From sequence record PQ356294.1: a stretch of 64,000 nucleotides of DNA; one strand, written 5' to 3'. The position numbers and the translations under genes are program-made. Of this stretch, positions 735 through 60,502 are shown in pieces (positions within the stretch are counted from its first letter, which is position 1; each line of letters starts with the position of its first letter). The notes under the pieces are model-generated. The model saw only the letters and a list, made by a program, of their open reading frames with translations, was not told the origin of the DNA and did not search any database. The stretch is from Escherichia phage Ec_YwIITB1.

Positions 735-740
735 TTGATT

Positions 741-1391
741 ATGGGGCTTCGGCCCCTATTCTCGAGGAAACAAGTGATTATTTCTAAGTTTGTTAAAGTG
801 AAAATTGTACCATCAAATTTTAAACATTATCAATCAAAGGGTTATAAATTAACACCTCTTGGAGCGGTTAAACATGGATTTAGGTATTATGAAATTGATG
901 TTAAAGTTGAAGACATTAAAGGTAATACCGCGTATGTAAAATGCCGTTGCGATAAATGTGGAATTGAATATAACCAACGCATTGGAAGAAACACTGATAT
1001 TTGTCGTGATTGCCGTCATAAAGATAAAATGCGCAATAATTCATATGGTTCCGCGAATAAAGGAAAAACAGTAGAATGTATGCATGGCGTAAATCATCCA
1101 AGATGGAACCCAAATAAATCTGAAATGCGTGAATATATTTCATTGGTATATAAAGAAACTCGTAAGCATAAGAAAATTTGGTCAAAATGGCCAAATGCTG
1201 ATAAAATAGGAGTGTGCGGTACAAAAGGTGCTTACCAACTTGATCATAAGGTATCTATCAAATACGGTTTTGATAATTTAATTCCTGTTGAAATAATTGG
1301 CGGTATTAATAATTTAGAAATAATCACTTGGGAATCTAACCGAGAAAAATCAAAAAGAAATAGTGTAGATCTTTGGGATTTACTAGAATGA
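741..1391 (+). CDS. HNH-family (putative homing) endonuclease with N-terminal Cys-rich zinc-finger region; free-standing between genes 18 and 19
   Basis: ORF 735..1391; first ATG at 741; Cys cluster CRCDKCG...CRDCRH; C-terminal HNH-like motif QLDHKVSIKYGF...NNLEI..W.SN; position atypical for T4 backbone. Confidence 0.7.
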   Translation: MGLRPLFSRKQVIISKFVKVKIVPSNFKHYQSKGYKLTPLGAVKHGFRYYEIDVKVEDIKGNTAYVKCRCDKCGIEYNQRIGRNTDICRDCRHKDKMRNNSYGSANKGKTVECMHGVNHPRWNPNKSEMREYISLVYKETRKHKKIWSKWPNADKIGVCGTKGAYQLDHKVSIKYGFDNLIPVEIIGGINNLEIITWESNREKSKRNSVDLWDLLE

Positions 1392-1498: not shown

Positions 1499-1990
1499 AT
1501 GTTTGTAGATGATGTAACACGAGCGTTTGAATCTGGTGATTTTGCTCGACCTAACTTATTCCAAGTAGAAATTTCTTATCTTGGACAAAATTTTACGTTT
1601 CAATGTAAAGCCACTGCTTTACCAGCTGGTATTGTAGAAAAAATTCCAGTCGGTTTTATGAACCGTAAAATTAACGTAGCAGGCGATCGTACATTCGATG
1701 ACTGGACTGTTACAGTAATGAACGATGAGGCACATGATGCTCGCCAGAAGTTTGTTGATTGGCAAAGCATTGCTGCTGGGCAAGGGAACGAAATTACTGG
1801 TGGAAAACCAGCAGAGTATAAAAAGAGTGCTGTTGTTCGCCAATATGCTCGTGACGCTAAAACTGTAACAAAAGAAGTTGAAATTAAAGGCCTGTGGCCT
1901 ACTAACGTGGGTGAACTTCAATTAGATTGGGATTCAAACAATGAAATCCAAACCTTTGAAGTAACTCTCGCTCTCGATTATTGGGAATAA
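1499..1990 (+). CDS. 19: Tail tube protein gp19
   Basis: 163-aa ORF matching T4 gp19 (MFVDDVTRAFESGDFARPNLFQVEISYLG...); TATAAATA late promoter upstream. Confidence 0.95.
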   Translation: MFVDDVTRAFESGDFARPNLFQVEISYLGQNFTFQCKATALPAGIVEKIPVGFMNRKINVAGDRTFDDWTVTVMNDEAHDARQKFVDWQSIAAGQGNEITGGKPAEYKKSAVVRQYARDAKTVTKEVEIKGLWPTNVGELQLDWDSNNEIQTFEVTLALDYWE

Positions 1991-2022
1991 AATGAATGGG
2001 GAGAAATCCCCATCCTGCTTAA

Positions 2023-3647
<1,625 letters not shown>

Positions 3648-5808: not shown

Positions 5809-7370
5809 ATGACTATCAAAACTAAAGCTGAACTTTTGAACAAATGGAAGCCATTACTGGAAGGTGAAGGTTTACCGGAAATTGCTAATAGCAAACAAGC
5901 GATTATCGCTAAAATCTTTGAAAACCAGGAAAAAGATTTCCAGACAGCTCCAGAGTACAAAGACGAAAAAATCGCCCAGGCGTTCGGTTCTTTCTTAACA
6001 GAAGCTGAAATCGGTGGTGACCACGGTTACAACGCTACTAACATTGCTGCTGGTCAGACTTCTGGCGCAGTAACTCAGATTGGCCCAGCTGTTATGGGTA
6101 TGGTACGTCGTGCTATTCCTAACCTGATTGCTTTCGATATTTGCGGTGTTCAGCCGATGAATAGCCCGACTGGCCAGGTATTTGCACTGCGTGCAGTATA
6201 TGGTAAAGACCCAATCGCTGCTGATGCTAAAGAAGCATTCCACCCAATGTATGGTCCAGATGCAATGTTCTCTGGTCAGGGTGCTGCTAAGAAATTCGCG
6301 CTAGCACACAAACTACTGTAAGTTGGAACCATTTACACCTATTTCTTCCAGGAAACTGGTACTGTATATCTGCAAGCTACCTCTAGTTAAAGCAAATTGA
6401 TACAAGTGCTTCTGACGCAGCTAAATTAGATGCTGAAATTAAGAAACAAATGGAAGCTGGCGTATTGGTAGAAATCGCTGAAGGTATGGCTACTTCTATC
6501 GCTGAACTTCAGGAAGGTTTCAACGGTTCTACCGATAACCCATGGAATGAAATGGGATTCCGTATCGATAAACAAGTTATCGAAGCTAAATCTCGTCAGC
6601 TGAAAGCTGCTTACTCTATCGAATTAGCACAAGACCTCCGCGCTGTTCACGGTATGGATGCTGATGCTGAACTGTCTGGTATTCTGGCTACCGAAATCAT
6701 GCTGGAAATCAACCGTGAAGTTGTTGATTGGATTAACTACTCAGCTCAGGTTGGTAAATCTGGTATGACCCTGACTCCGGGTTCTAAAGCTGGTGTATTT
6801 GACTTCCAGGATCCGATTGATATTCGCGGTGCTCGCTGGGCAGGTGAATCCTTTAAAGCTCTGTTGTTCCAGATTGACAAAGAAGCAGTTGAAATTGCTC
6901 GTCAGACCGGTCGTGGTGAAGGTAACTTCATTATCGCTTCCCGTAACGTAGTTAACGTTCTGGCTTCAGTTGATACTGGCATTTCTTATGCTGCACAGGG
7001 TCTGGCTACCGGCTTTAACACTGATACTACCAAGTCAGTATTTGCTGGTGTTCTGGGTGGTAAATACCGTGTATACATCGACCAGTATGCTAAACAGGAT
7101 TATTTCACTGTAGGTTATAAAGGTCCGAACGAAATGGATGCTGGTATTTACTACGCTCCATATGTAGCTCTGACTCCGCTGCGTGGTTCCGATCCGAAGA
7201 ACTTCCAACCGGTAATGGGATTCAAAACTCGTTACGGTATCGGTATCAACCCATTTGCAGAATCCGCTGCTCAGGCTCCGGCTTCTCGCATCCAAAGCGG
7301 TATGCCTTCTATTCTTAATAGCCTTGGTAAAAACGCTTACTTCCGCCGTGTATATGTTAAAGGTATCTAA
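5809..7370 (+). CDS. 23: Major capsid protein gp23; reading frame broken by several small indels between about 6290 and 6450 in the sequence as given (probable sequencing error)
   Basis: ORFs 5809..6321 and 6450..7370 match T4 gp23 N- and C-terminal parts; intervening residues (TQTTV, VGTIYTYFFQETGTVYLQ, KQIDTSASDAAKLDAEIKK) are found in shifted frames. Confidence 0.9.
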
Positions 7371-10063: not shown

Positions 10064-10261
10064 TCACCTTTTATTAATATGTCTTTTTCTATAGACAACT
10101 TTTTCTCGAGTTTCAAATTTATTCTTAGCAGTCATAGCTCGAGCCCATAATACAGCCACTTCTTTCGCCTGTAAGTTCAATTCACGAGCAATTTCAATGA
10201 ATGACTTTCCAGACTCATGAAGAGTAAACACCACAACCTCAGTTCTCATAATCAATCTCAT
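10064..10261 (-). CDS. Hypothetical protein (24.3-like position)
   Basis: 65-aa ORF, operon context. Confidence 0.55.
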   Translation of the reverse strand: MRLIMRTEVVVFTLHESGKSFIEIARELNLQAKEVAVLWARAMTAKNKFETREKVVYRKRHINKR

Positions 10262-10320: not shown

Positions 10321-10344
10321 AATGAAGAAAGGGGCCGAAGCCCC
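10321..10344 (-). terminator. Terminator hairpin after hoc (GGGGC-UUCG-GCCCC + U-rich on minus strand)
   Basis: Stem-loop 10331-10344 followed on the minus strand by a T-rich tract. Confidence 0.55.
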
Positions 10345-10356
10345 TTATGATTATGA

Positions 10357-11786
10357 TTATGGATAGGTATAGATGATACCAGTTTCTAAAGCAGTTTTAT
10401 GAATGATGTATCCATTGCGTGATTCTTGAACATCAACTTCTGGATAGTCTTTCATCATCTTCTGAAGAGTGTAACGATGCAGGTAGTATTTACTGTCTGG
10501 ATCTTCAGTTTTCCAATCTTTACCTTCTTCGGTCATTTTTTGGATTTCATCCATAACCCACCAGCCGCACCAGATATAAGCCGAAGTACGATGTGGAAGA
10601 GGATGAACATAAGGCAATTCACCTTCTGGTTCCGGAGCAACTTTATCAGTTACCTGAACTTGGCCTGTTGCTTTAACTGTTTTACTATCATAGTCGGTTG
10701 CTGTAACGACAGCAGTAACTTCAATAGTTTGACTTCCAATAGATGAGGTGTCAACGGTGTATACATTAGTTGACCCTTCTACAGGAGAAGAATCTTTCTT
10801 CCATGAATAAGTAATTTGAGCTGCTTCAGGTGCTCCGTGACATTAGCCGTAAATGTAGCCGAAGCATCTTGCTGAACGTTAATAGAAGGAGGAGTCAATG
10901 TAACCTGTGGATTCATTGTCTTCTTATTAACTGTCAATGATACTTCATTAGAAGTAACTTCCTTTGCATCATAATTTTCAGCCGTTACTTGGGCTACACA
11001 CTTAACTGTTTTAGCTCCAACTGTGGTAGGAGTATAGTTAAATGTAGTAGTAGTTTCTCCATCGACCAGAGAACCGTCAACATACCACTGATACGTAGCA
11101 GACGCTCCTGGTGGCTGTGAAGCCAAGGTAGCAGTAAATTGAACTGGGGTTCCAATAACTCCTGCTGGAGGATTAGCAGGAGTTACGGCTAACGTAGTTG
11201 TCTGTGTTTTCTTATTAACAGTCAGTGACACTTCATTAGAAGTAACTTCCTTTGCATCATAATCTGTCGCGGTTACTTGAGCTACACACTTAATTGTTTT
11301 AACTCCGCTTGCGTCAGGAGTGTAATTGAATGTAGTGCCAGTTGCTTCGCCCACAGGAGAACCGTCAACGTGCCATTGATACGTAGCGTTTGCACTTGGT
11401 GGCTGTGAAGCTAAGGCAGCGGTAAATTCAATTGGAGTTCCAATCACTCCAGCATCAGGGCTACCAGGAGTTACAGCTAAAATAGTTGTTTGTGTCTTAT
11501 TTTGAACCGTGATAGTTGTCGTAGTTTCTGCTGTTTCAGGTTCAGGTTCAGATTCAGATTCTGGAACTGTATTTGTTGCAACGACTTTAATAGTCTTTTG
11601 ACCTGCAGGTCCTTTTAATACATAGCCAAAAGTTGCCGCTTCTCCATCTTGCGGAACATTATCTACACTCCAAGCATAGGTAATAGTTCCATCTCCAGTT
11701 TCACCACTGGGTGTAGCAGTAAACTGCTTGGTTTCATCAATAACTCCTGTTGGGGTTTTAGGAGTTATATCAACTGTAAAAGTCAT
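10357..11786 (-). pseudogene. hoc: Head outer capsid protein Hoc; extra tandem Ig-like domain and an apparent 1-nt deletion (about 10836) separating the Ig domains from the capsid-binding C-terminal domain
   Basis: ORF 10779..11786 (N-terminal Ig domains) and ORF 10357..10617 (conserved Hoc C-terminus LPYVHPLPHR...IIYTYP) in different frames; pseudogene or sequencing error. Confidence 0.8.
10917..11498 (-). repeat. Tandem direct duplication (2 x about 291 bp) encoding two near-identical Hoc Ig-like domains
   Basis: Protein repeat KTQTT.LAVTP...ATYQW.VDGS...KCVAQVTA..YDAKEVTSNEVSLTVNKKT occurs twice in tandem; DNA copies at about 11208-11498 and 10917-11207. Confidence 0.75.
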
Positions 11787-40323: not shown

Positions 40324-41498
40324 TTAAAAATATTTTTTAAAACTCATCATAACTTTATCATCAACATCATTATCAATCTGTGCTACAAGATAAGATGACA
40401 GTTCTACTTCTTGCGGCGCGGATTGAACATTATCAGAATTAAGATATTCACGAATCCAAGGATACGGGTGTTTAACCGGAGCATCGGTAATTGGGCATGG
40501 AAGACCACACTGTTTCATACGAGATACAGTTAAGTAATCAATAAAGTTCCACATGCTATTTGTATTTAATCCAGGAACATCGCCATCTTTAAATAAATGA
40601 ACTGCCCAGTCTTTTTCTTGGCGGTTAACTTCCATGAAAATATCAACTGCTTCTTGTTCACACTCTTGGGCGATTTTAACCCATTCATCACCATCAGTGC
40701 CAAGTTGAAGTTGACGAATAATATATTGGGTGCCTTTAAGGTGAAGCTGTTCATCACGTGCAATGAACTTCATAATCTTGGCATTACCTTCCATGATTTC
40801 CATGTTTTTATGGAAGTTAAAGGTACATGCGAAAGATACGTAAAAACGAATAGCTTCCAGTGCGTTGATTACATGCAGACAAAGGTAAAGAGAACGCATT
40901 AGTTCACGTTTCCAATACATTTCATGCTCTATGGCATCTTTAATATCATCTTCGTCTGCGTTAATTTCTTTTTGGTACTCAATATCAGCTTTAGCATTCT
41001 GCCACGAGTTTTCTCAATAACATCATCATAGTAACGACCAATAGATTCAGCACGTTTCATGATAGCTTTATCTAATACAATCTCATCAAATACTTTTGAC
41101 GGATCAGTATAAAGATTCCGCATGATATGAGTGTATGAACGACTGTGAATAGTTTCGCTAAAAGTCCATGTAGCAACCCATGTATCAAGGCTTGGGTCTG
41201 AAATTAACGACATAAGTACAGCAGACGGTGCACGACCCTGAATGCTATCCAAAAGTGATTGATACTTCAGGTTATTAGTAAAAATATCTTGCTGATACTG
41301 AGGAAGCTTGTTAAATTGTGCAGCATCCATCATCAAGTTTACTTCTTCAGGACGCCAGAAAAATGACAACTGCTTTTCGGTTAAATCTTCAAAAACTTTA
41401 TGGCGTTGAATATCATAACGCGCAATACCAAGACCTGAACCGAAGAACATAGGTTCTTTTAAAACATCAACTGGATTTGTATTAAAAACTGTGCTCAT
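40324..41498 (-). pseudogene. nrdB: Ribonucleotide reductase beta subunit NrdB, intron-less, with apparent net -1 frameshift near 40994 in the sequence as given
   Basis: ORFs 40929..41498 (N-terminal 165 aa good, then out-of-frame tail) and 40324..40920 (C-terminal part) together span about 388 codons; pseudogene or sequencing error. Confidence 0.85.
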
Positions 41499-41549
41499 AA
41501 ATTTTCCGCTTAGTTAATAGATAGTGACTCATCCGTGAGTCAAATTATA

Positions 41550-43814
41550 TCATAATTTACAGGATGAACAATCTTCAGCTTTTGGAGTTTCTATTTCATA
41601 ATCATCAGTACCAGAACCGTCACGGGTATTATGATAATAGAAATTTTTTCCGCCAAAATACCAAAAATACAAAAGGTCATCAATCATTATTGACATTGGA
41701 ACCTTTCCTTTTGGAAAAATCTGCGGGTCATAATATGTATTCGCTGAAGCTGATTGACACACCCATTTCAGCATAATAGCTACTTGCGTAAGATAAGGTT
41801 TATTGCCTTTCTTAGCTAATTTCCATGTATAATCATAGAGGTCTATGTTGTGCTCAATATTGGGCACGACTTGATTAAAGGAGCCCTCTTTTGATTCTTT
41901 AACAGAGACTGGTCCACGTGGAGGCTCGATACCGTTTGTACTGTTAGAAACTTGGGAAGATGACTCACATGGCATAAGTGCTGATAATGTGCTATTACGG
42001 ATGCCAAAGAGCTTAAGGTCTTCCCGCAGCGACGACCAGTCACAAACGTATTTTGGAGCTGCGATTTGGTCAATCTTTTTATTGTACCAGTCGATAGGTA
42101 ATTCGCCTCGAGACCAACGAGTGTCTGAATAATATTCGCAAGGTCCTTTTTCTTTGGCGAGCTTAATGGATGCTTTAATGAGTCCATACTGTAGTCTCTC
42201 AAATAGTTCATGTGTTAAATCGTTAGCATCTTCATAAGAAGCAAAATTACTTGCCAGCCAAGCTGCATAGTTAGTAACACCTACGCCAAGGTTTCGACGT
42301 TTTTTAGCTTTTTCTGCTTCAGGAACTGGATATCCTTGGTAATCCAAAAGATTATCAAGAGCACGAACTTGGACTTCTGCCAATTCATTAATTTTATCTT
42401 GGTCTTGCCAATCGAAGTTATCTAACACAAATGCAGATAACGTACACAATCCAATTTCAGCATCAGGACTATTCACATCATTTGTTGGAATAGCAATTTC
42501 ACAACACAAGTTGCTCTGACGAATAGGTGCCTTTTCACGAATAAACGGAGTATAGTTATTCGTATTATCTATGAACTGTACATAAATCCTTGCTGTTCCT
42601 GAGCGTTCAGTCATGAGCAATTCAAACAGTTCACGGGCTTTAATACGCTTTTTACGAATATTAGGGTCTTTTTCTGCAGCTTCATATAATTCACGGAAAC
42701 GGTCTTGGTCTTTAAAATAAGAATAGTAAAGTTCGCCACCCATTTCATGCGGACTGAACAAAGTAATGTAATCATTCTTTCCAAATCGTTCCATCATCAA
42801 ATCATTCAGCTGGACGCCATAATCCATATGACGGATACGGTTTTCTTCTACACCTTTGTTATTTTTCAAAACGAGAAGATTTTCAACTTCCAAATGCCAA
42901 ATAGGATAATAAGCAGTAGCAGCGCCGCCACGAATTCCACCCTGTGAGCATGATTTAACAGCAGTTTGAAAATGTTTCCAAAAAGGAATAACACCAGTAT
43001 GACGTACTTCACCTGTGCCAATCTTAGAACCTTCGGCACGAATCATACCAACGTTAATACCAATTCCAGCGCGTTTGGAGATATACTCAACAATTGAAGC
43101 GGAAGCCTTATTGATAGACTTTAATGAATCACCTGCCTCAATAACAACGCATGAACTAAACTGCCGAGTTGGAGTACGGCAACCAGCCATAATAGGGGTT
43201 GGCAGTGAAATCTGTCGAGTAGATACTGCTTCATAAAAACGAATAACGTGTTTTAATCTATCAACAGGTTCATCTTGATGCAATGCCATTCCAATAGTCA
43301 TAAATGCAAACTGTGGAGTTTCATAAATTTGACCAGTGGTTTTATCTTTAACTAGATATTTTTCTTTTAATTGCATCGCCCCGGAATAAGTAAATTCCAT
43401 ATCCCGTTCGTGCTTAATTTTTGATTCTAAAAATGTAATTTCTTCTGCTGAATATTTTGACAACAATTCAGGGTCGTATTTACCTTCATTTACACAGTAA
43501 GAAATATGGTCAATAAATGAACGTGGTTCATACTGCCCGTAAACATGCTTACGAAGAGCGAACATTAAGCAGCGTGCAGCTACATATTGATAATCAGGCT
43601 CTTCAACTGAAATAGAATTCGCAGCAGCCTTAATTACAATGGTTTGAATGTCATCAGTTGTCATTCCATCACGGAGATATGATTTAATATTTTCATATAA
43701 TTCATAAGGATCTACAGATGTTCCTTCAGCTGCCCAAGATAAAACTTTAATAATTTTTTGTGGGTCAAAGCTCTGAGAAACACCACTACTTTTGATAACA
43801 TTAATTAATTGCAT
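41550..43814 (-). CDS. nrdA: Ribonucleotide reductase alpha subunit NrdA
   Basis: 754-aa ORF matching T4 NrdA. Confidence 0.95.
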   Translation of the reverse strand: MQLINVIKSSGVSQSFDPQKIIKVLSWAAEGTSVDPYELYENIKSYLRDGMTTDDIQTIVIKAAANSISVEEPDYQYVAARCLMFALRKHVYGQYEPRSFIDHISYCVNEGKYDPELLSKYSAEEITFLESKIKHERDMEFTYSGAMQLKEKYLVKDKTTGQIYETPQFAFMTIGMALHQDEPVDRLKHVIRFYEAVSTRQISLPTPIMAGCRTPTRQFSSCVVIEAGDSLKSINKASASIVEYISKRAGIGINVGMIRAEGSKIGTGEVRHTGVIPFWKHFQTAVKSCSQGGIRGGAATAYYPIWHLEVENLLVLKNNKGVEENRIRHMDYGVQLNDLMMERFGKNDYITLFSPHEMGGELYYSYFKDQDRFRELYEAAEKDPNIRKKRIKARELFELLMTERSGTARIYVQFIDNTNNYTPFIREKAPIRQSNLCCEIAIPTNDVNSPDAEIGLCTLSAFVLDNFDWQDQDKINELAEVQVRALDNLLDYQGYPVPEAEKAKKRRNLGVGVTNYAAWLASNFASYEDANDLTHELFERLQYGLIKASIKLAKEKGPCEYYSDTRWSRGELPIDWYNKKIDQIAAPKYVCDWSSLREDLKLFGIRNSTLSALMPCESSSQVSNSTNGIEPPRGPVSVKESKEGSFNQVVPNIEHNIDLYDYTWKLAKKGNKPYLTQVAIMLKWVCQSASANTYYDPQIFPKGKVPMSIMIDDLLYFWYFGGKNFYYHNTRDGSGTDDYEIETPKAEDCSSCKL

Positions 43815-44371: not shown

Positions 44372-45231
44372 TTACACCGCCATCTTTCCTTTAATTGGCG
44401 GGTGAGATACATAGTTGTTAAGAACAAAATTATGCGGCTTTGCGAATTGACTCAACCAAAATACCTGCGATTCTGTGTCCCATTCATCAAATTCATCTGG
44501 AAATTTTAATTGTAATTCGCATAAATCCATAGGTTCACGACGCAAAATTTCTTTACATTGTTCTACGTGATTCATATAGATATGAGTATTACCACCAGAA
44601 AATATCAAATCTCCTGGAATAAGTTTACACATCTTAGCTACAATATGAACTAACGTAGCATATGATGCAATATTAAATGGAAGACCGAGGAAAACATCTA
44701 CCGAACGTTGATACCACTGCAAATCCAAATAGCCATTACGCACATTAAATTGATAGAACATATGACAAGGTGGTAATGCCATTTGCTTGAGTTCAGCTGG
44801 ATTCCATGCTGAAACAATTTGACGTCTATCATTTGGCAGTTTTTTAATACGATCAACAACTTCTATAATTTGGTCTACACCACCAAAATCGCGCCACTGT
44901 TTTCCATAAATTGGACCAAGTTCACCACTATGGTATCCTAAATCTTTTGCTTGATTTTCGTAATTTTCATCCCAGACTGTTTTGCCTTGAATTAATGAAT
45001 CATGTTGAATTAATCGCAAATCATTGACATTTGTGCTTCCCGATAAAAACCATATTAGCTCAGCAATGCAAGCTTTCCAGGCAAGCTTCTTAGTCGTTAC
45101 TGCAGGAAAACCTTTAGTTAAATCCCAGCGTAATTTAGTACCGAACAAAGCAATTGTTCCTGTGCCTGTTCGGTCATCGGTTTCGTAACCATTTTCCAGG
45201 ATATCTTTAATTAAAAATTGGTATTGTTTCA

Positions 45232-45232
<1 letters not shown>
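44372..45232 (-). CDS. td: Thymidylate synthase (intron-less)
   Basis: ORF 44372..45244; start at MKQYQF...; continuous ORF with no intervening sequence; matches T4 Td apart from a variable C-terminal segment. Confidence 0.95.
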
Positions 45233-46257
<1,025 letters not shown>

Positions 46258-46565: not shown

Positions 46566-46950
46566 TACTTTTTGAAAGTTTTTCGCAAAAGTTCAATGAT
46601 TTCATCTACATTGTTTTCATCAACAATGCAGTGAATTTTTGTTACGCCAGAAACCTTGTCTTCGACTTCATCTTCTTCGGAAGTCGGTTCTTTATACTCA
46701 CGAAAACAATGAAATTCGTCTTCGCAAATTTCTAAAAGTCTATCTTTGAGGTAAAAATGCTTTCCGTTAGCGCACAAATGATTTCGGTTACATAATCAAA
46801 GCCATCTAAATTTGATATTGATTTAACTTCAAACCAACCACCATTTTCTTGAATGATGCCGACCATATTAGTATTTGATGAACTAATATCAATGAAAGAT
46901 TTAATACGATGTATCAATAAGTCTTGGAACAAGTTCATACTTTTTGCCAA
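46565..46950 (-). CDS. Hypothetical protein; two overlapping ORFs (46732..46950 and 46565..46777) that may be one gene split by a frameshift
   Basis: Adjacent ORFs overlap by 46 nt in different frames; downstream ORF has no ATG start. Confidence 0.4.

Positions 46951-56383: not shown

Positions 56384-60502
<4,119 letters not shown>

Follow-up and report, generated by a model that had tools for sequence, protein, structure and literature searches.

A one-base frame break in the hoc gene of a T4-like phage record and its probable origin in mixed templates

In the stretch of 64,000 nt from Escherichia phage Ec_YwIITB1 (PQ356294.1) that we analyzed, referred to as the window in the following, the hoc gene has a net loss of one base, which falls precisely where the sequence passes from one known allele type to another. 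The window contains at least seven frame-breaking lesions, all of them confined to polymorphic patches, and they include breaks in gp23 and gp37, two genes that are essential by established T4 genetics. Because both of these genes are broken, the sequence as written cannot be that of a viable phage. We consider it probable that the hoc break is an artifact of a chimeric or mixed-template sequence derived from at least two Tequatroviruses, a cause to which the pattern of alleles points. As a biological feature, the break is most likely not real.

The hoc gene as written and as repaired

The gene lies on the minus strand in the order inh-hoc-24.3-24.2-rnlB, the same as in T4, and starts with an ATG at 11786. 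Its first 317 codons are native and end in ...TFTANVT, after which the hoc frame continues into EHLKQLKLLIHGRKILLL, a series of 18 out-of-frame codons closed by a TAG at 10779-10781. The resulting ORF, 11786..10779, encodes 335 aa with the C-terminal end ...TFTANVTEHLKQLKLLIHGRKILLL. In the -1 frame, the sequence reads GAPEAAQITYSWKKDSSPVEGS... and encounters no stop until a TAA at 10357-10359, such that the distance from ATG to TAA amounts to 1430 nt (3n+2), i.e. one base less than a multiple of three. The break itself is situated between C10836 and G10837, within plus-strand GGTGCTCCGTGAC at 10829-10841. Since the 159 aa encoded past the break in the -1 frame share 96.9% identity with residues 314-472 of U115 Hoc (tblastn), this segment is not a chance ORF. 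The features of the locus are as follows:

10779..11786, minus strand: 5' part of hoc as written (317 native codons, 18 out-of-frame codons and TAG), comprising Ig-like domains 1 and 2, a second copy of domain 2 and the beginning of the last Ig domain
11541..11564, minus strand: linker between Hoc domains 1 and 2, with a 12-nt in-frame expansion, (GAATCT)2(GAACCT)2, translated as SESEPEPE and private to the window
10836..10837, minus strand: frame break with one base missing, at a junction of AR1/sb4-type and Killian-type sequence
10357..10836, minus strand: 3' part of hoc in the -1 frame (GAPEAAQITYSW...IIYTYP and stop), comprising the remainder of the last Ig domain and the C-terminal domain
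10360..10647, minus strand: coding region of the capsid-binding domain (residues 381-476 of the repaired protein, corresponding to T4 Hoc 281-376)
10327..10344, minus strand: GC-rich hairpin (GGGGC TTCG GCCCC) and T-run directly past the hoc stop

No further lesions were found in the 3' part of the gene (10357..10836). The limits of the capsid-binding domain, which comprises residues 281-376 in T4 Hoc (PMC10385173), were set with the help of this reference and of an alignment to PDB 5vf3_Z. With respect to the ATG at 11786, its coding region is shifted to the -1 frame; adding back a single base yields an intact and conserved domain. Owing to the frame break, the product as written is thus devoid of most of the last Ig domain and of the whole capsid-binding domain. 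The hairpin and T-run past the stop likely act as an intrinsic terminator, judging from their sequence, and a terminator is annotated at the equivalent place in the record of phage G29.

With one base restored, hoc encodes a protein of 476 aa. In a phmmer search against the PDB, residues 189-476 of this protein match residues 89-376 of 5vf3_Z with E=8e-211, and its Pfam matches are PKD (6.9e-08), Ig_3 and I-set; tblastn searches with Hoc of U115 and of Ec_MI-02 agree with this homology. The translation contains the N-terminal string of Ig-like domains, in which domain 2 is internally duplicated. T4 Hoc (NP_049793; PDB 5VF3 chain Z, 8T1X) occupies the same gene position and is strongly homologous. 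It is shorter, however, at 376 aa, as the window protein has one additional Ig-like domain, the duplicate of domain 2, as well as a longer acidic linker; a further difference is that the last 160 codons of the window gene as written are in the -1 frame. By contrast, the Hoc proteins of the closest relatives, AR1, Killian, U115, sb4 and pSs-1, have 472-474 aa and the same five-domain architecture as that of the window, but all of their genes are in frame, whereas the window gene has lost one base. Killian provides the best full-length match to the gene (95.2%), and AR1 matches its 3' 600 nt with 97-99% identity. Across 650 homologs, the number of Ig domains in Hoc varies from 1 to 10 (PMC10385173), and the gene in the window is an ordinary five-domain member of this family. 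The hexanucleotide-repeat linker of hoc is of intermediate length in AR1 and shortest in Killian and U115.

These results agree with a preliminary description made from the letters of the window, which had recognized the gene as hoc, had placed the frame break at this point with a net loss of one base and had the capsid-binding C-terminus continue in the other frame. Two details need correction. With the frame restored, the peptide reads GAPEAAQ; GAPEEAQ is the version found in T4. Likewise, the ORF 10357..10617 that had been named as encoding the C-terminus does lie within the -1 frame, but it is a mechanical ORF counted from the first TTG, in a frame that is open from about 10845. We also considered re-initiation at this TTG as a source of free capsid-binding domain, and set it aside, as the sole Shine-Dalgarno-like motif (AAGGTG) is located just 2 nt away, which we judged by eye to be too close.

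The missing base and the alleles that meet there

Overall, the window shares identities of ~95-97% with the Shigella phages sb1 and KNP5 and the Escherichia phages Ec_MI-02 and U115, and belongs to the genus Tequatrovirus. Around the hoc break, the best match is an allele of the AR1/wV7/Sf21/EPIMAM01 type, with 98.5% identity over 261 nt, each of these sequences spanning 262 nt; among the best phage-collection matches listed, all span one base more than the window at this site. To follow the alleles across the break, we used k-mers of k at least 12 together with maximal exact matches of at least 14, because painting at k=9 on 19-kb loci was too permissive; the parent alleles named here are those of the deposited genomes fetched for comparison. 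The maximal exact matches show that 10837-10890 follows the Killian path exactly and 10820-10836 the AR1/sb4 path exactly, with a diagonal shift of 1 between the two paths at the boundary of 10836 and 10837. Both alleles have a plus-strand A at this junction (AR1 CTCCAGTAAC, Killian CATCAGTGAC), where the window reads CTCC-GTGAC; on the coding strand, AR1 reads GCTAATGTTACTGGAGCACCTGAAGCAGCA and the window GCTAATGTCAC-GGAGCACCTGAAGCAGCT. Most parsimoniously, the missing base would be this lone A (T on the coding strand), which stands outside any homopolymer.

This differs from the one-C deletion in a short C-run that had originally been suggested. Such an error is formally possible from T4 and U115, which read ACG GGT GCT at this site (plus strand AGCACCCGT) and would need only a change of CCC to CC; moreover, ACG GGA would likewise encode Thr-Gly. 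However, this reading fits solely the T4/U115 allele (ACG GGT GCT CCA GAA GAA), the downstream sequence of which is absent from the window, and the adjoining window sequence GGAGCACCTGAAGCAGC represents the AR1/sb4 allele instead. AR1, sb4 and Killian have CCAGT or TCAGT, with a single A and no homopolymer at the site, and the corresponding reconstructions are CTCCAGTGAC and CTCCAGTAAC, as opposed to CTCCCGTGAC for an extra C. Furthermore, the remaining coding lesions of the window are changes of -4, -4 and +2 nt and scrambled patches, none of which lies in a homopolymer, whereas 81 genes are intact, although many of them contain homopolymer runs. We therefore regard the simple loss of one C from a CCC run as very unlikely.

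The two-frame arrangement could also be functional, if programmed -1 ribosomal frameshifting or transcriptional slippage were to yield full-length Hoc. The shift needed is indeed -1, and the 57-nt overlap of the two frames holds one weak in-frame A_AAG motif. Yet, neither an X_XXY_YYZ heptamer nor a homopolymer of at least five bases was found in this overlap, a shift at A_AAG would put 13 incorrect residues into an Ig domain, and the gene is in a single frame in 8/8 relatives examined. To us, the probability of recoding appears negligible.

A more serious alternative is that the window records a genuine and very recent hoc-null mutation, in which the loss of one base truncates Hoc before its capsid-binding domain, possibly because two T4-like phages in the same cell underwent homeologous recombination out of register. 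Such a phage would have Hoc-less virions and produce a free protein of 335 aa with three Ig domains. The gene is dispensable (Ishii and Yanagida 1977, as cited in PMC10385173), and an independent disruption is found in vB_EcoM_G29 (MK327940), where hoc is likewise annotated as two CDSs (‘PKD domain protein’; locus coordinates 1565-3038). The lesion in G29 is a 55-bp tandem duplication in the 5' half of the gene, without an allele switch, unlike that in the window.

The 160 codons past the break have pN/pS values of 0.037 relative to AR1 and of 0.07-0.15 relative to five other relatives, and no relaxed selection or secondary decay was seen in these codons against the six relatives. Given these low values and the absence of a second lesion, purifying selection has acted on the -1 frame until essentially the present. 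A recent event would likewise leave a low pN/pS downstream; the lack of any decay counts against a genuine null mutation. In addition, this allele was found in no other sequence: k-mers bearing the frameshift had no match in IMG/VR, GTDB genomes or JGI metagenomes, and the truncated protein had no exact record in a collection of 15 billion proteins. The same nucleotide collections (IMG/VR, GTDB genomes and JGI metagenomes) also yielded no match for the private linker allele or for the in-frame version of the window hoc allele, and no exact-sequence record was found for the neighboring Inh and RnlB proteins. Finally, lesions of the same kind in the essential genes gp23 and gp37 render the record unreliable at such sites. 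We thus consider a genuine hoc-null mutation unlikely, and a real hoc pseudogene cannot be inferred from the window sequence.

Other broken genes in the window

We surveyed gene integrity by comparing 96 translated U115 CDSs with the window (tblastn) and checked flagged genes against Ec_MI-02, Killian, EPIMAM01 and T4. Apart from the broken genes, 81 other genes of the window are intact. In the same test, Ec_MI-02 served as a control and showed one small hypothetical ORF split and no breaks in major genes. The lesions outside hoc are as follows:

6298..6392, plus strand: scrambled patch in gp23, with the frame running 1, 3, 1, 3 (three changes)
41003..41004, minus strand: loss of 4 nt in nrdB, at the point where the exact match passes from Ec_MI-02 (to 41004) to EPIMAM01 (from 41003) through a shared CA
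45685..45686, minus strand: 4-nt deletion in frd (TCTG on the coding strand), inside an EPIMAM01-type allele, leaving the gene in two ORFs
46772..46774, minus strand: split of a small frd-proximal ORF (homolog of U115_249) at a junction of Ec_MI-02-type and U115-type sequence
56424..56435, plus strand: +2 lesion in gp37 (distal long tail fiber), near 56431 and 14 codons into the gene

The gene for the major capsid protein, gp23 (window 5809-7370), is split into the ORFs 5809..6321 and 6450..7370. At the patch, a stretch of 151 nt in the window corresponds to 155 nt in all matches listed among 653 phage records, and the top identity over the patch is just 85% among the phage matches listed. The patch is a mosaic of fragments from the T4/Killian/MI-02 allele (GCTAGCACACAAAC) and from the EPIMAM01/U115 allele (AAGAAATTCGC, AGTTGGAAC), which lie on shifting diagonals and out of register. 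Only 6298-6420 is scrambled; on both sides, gp23 follows Killian at 99-100% identity, without indels and with 0-2 mismatches per 100 nt. We therefore dismissed diffuse sequencing noise as an explanation, given that gp23 outside the patch is 99.1% identical to Killian and free of indels.

The lesion in gp37 is a join of two exact allele paths: the window reads GCAGGTCAGCACGTCC, where U115 and EPIMAM01 have GCAGGTCAACGTCC and Ec_MI-02 has GCAGGAGCACGTCC. As a result, the product terminates after 24 aa (gene region from 56384), and the remaining 1075-codon ORF (56470..59697) is in another frame. In hoc, gp23, nrdB, gp37 and the small ORF, the lesion coincides with an allele switch; the exception is frd, where it is a clean deletion with no such switch.

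Several other differences from related phages were noted. Between genes 18 and 19, ~650 nt absent from U115 contain an ORF of 218 aa (window 735-1391, plus strand, TTG start). It has no Pfam match at E<=0.01, and its C-terminal part (...QLDHKVSIKYGFDN...N) resembles HNH proteins by eye, such that it may be an inserted homing endonuclease. The interval between nrdA and nrdB (window 41498-41550) has no homing-endonuclease gene, while U115 and Killian each have one, and td (window 44375-45232) is contiguous and encodes 286 aa, as in Ec_MI-02, while U115 annotates two pieces; both differences are ordinary mobile-element variation. At the 3' end of gene 24.3 (10064-10261, minus strand), a one-T difference from U115 in a T-run near 10073 changes the last codons and results in 65 aa, compared with 67 aa in U115 and 56 aa in T4. 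This T-run, at the variable 3' end of the gene, is the sole homopolymer within coding sequence that differs, and the difference in length may be natural variation. Two other database records also drew our attention. MG010123.1, a 32-kb sequence deposited as ‘Staphylococcus phage SAJK-IND’, contains a T4-type gp23 that is 99.0% identical to that of the window, and is probably mislabeled or contaminated. The record of Shigella phage sb4 (PQ666542, 3818-4534) divides RNA ligase 2 (rnlB) between two neighboring CDSs, an annotation that points to a frameshift there as well.

A probable chimeric or mixed-template origin and its consequences

The lesions in essential genes imply that the process which produced them was not filtered by selection for viability. 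We therefore favor a scenario in which the sequence arose from a sample with at least two related T4-like phages, either through template switching or during consensus building, polishing or assembly. Near hoc and gp23, the backbone of the window would be largely Killian-like, and in polymorphic patches it would switch to an AR1/Sf21/EPIMAM01-like, Ec_MI-02-like or U115-like allele. At the joins, the register is off by 1, 2 or 4 bases, and the two alleles often meet in a shared stretch of 2-3 nt. At hoc, Killian-type ...GCTAATGTCAC would have been joined to AR1-type GGAGCACCTGAAGCAGC..., with loss of the intervening T (plus-strand A). As a plain de Bruijn-graph chimera joins its parts in register, this scenario additionally requires template switching or a step of consensus building or polishing.

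This picture resembles known artifacts of mixed-strain consensus sequences, in which the lesions likewise lie in polymorphic patches flanked by exact matches to different alleles, essential genes are broken and the rest of the sequence is clean. The clean deletion within a single allele of frd departs from that pattern, and one mechanism may therefore not account for every lesion. In the same way, a strict two-parent model of Killian and EPIMAM01 was only partly borne out, with nrdB and the small ORF involving Ec_MI-02 and U115 types, and frd having a clean deletion. Furthermore, hoc, nrdB and frd are dispensable, and the lesions in these three genes could therefore be genuine even if gp23 and gp37 were broken by an artifact.

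It is also conceivable that the joins are real. The window would then represent a defective recombinant genome that arose in vivo when two Tequatroviruses infected the same cell and the template was switched at microhomologies, and that was maintained by complementation in a mixed population. In that case, the hoc allele would yield a free protein with three Ig domains that is not bound to the capsid, and the sequence would have directly captured an event of illegitimate homeologous recombination among T-even phages. We deem such an origin highly improbable. With an artifact of mixed templates as the preferred explanation, the two options offered at the outset, a real pseudogene or a homopolymer sequencing error, are both superseded: the broad idea of a sequencing artifact holds, but neither option is the best one, given that the break sits at an allele switch and is accompanied by the lesions in gp23 and gp37.

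Laboratory hoc-defective mutants of T4, reportedly described by Ishii and Yanagida in 1977, are viable and carry no Hoc on their capsids, and the outcome would be the same if the lesion in the window were real. Those mutants are verified, however, whereas the putative lesion described here occurs alongside others that are lethal.

If the window were accepted as it stands, a ‘natural Hoc-less T4-like phage’ would enter the record. Even if the lesion were real, its importance would still be modest, since hoc is known to be dispensable and laboratory mutants are viable. The value of our analysis thus lies in quality control: calls of pseudogenes, frameshifts and recoding from the window need to be discounted until reads or amplicons have been inspected. 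If the window is indeed a mixed sequence, the real phage or phages behind it would carry an intact five-domain Hoc of ~476 aa.
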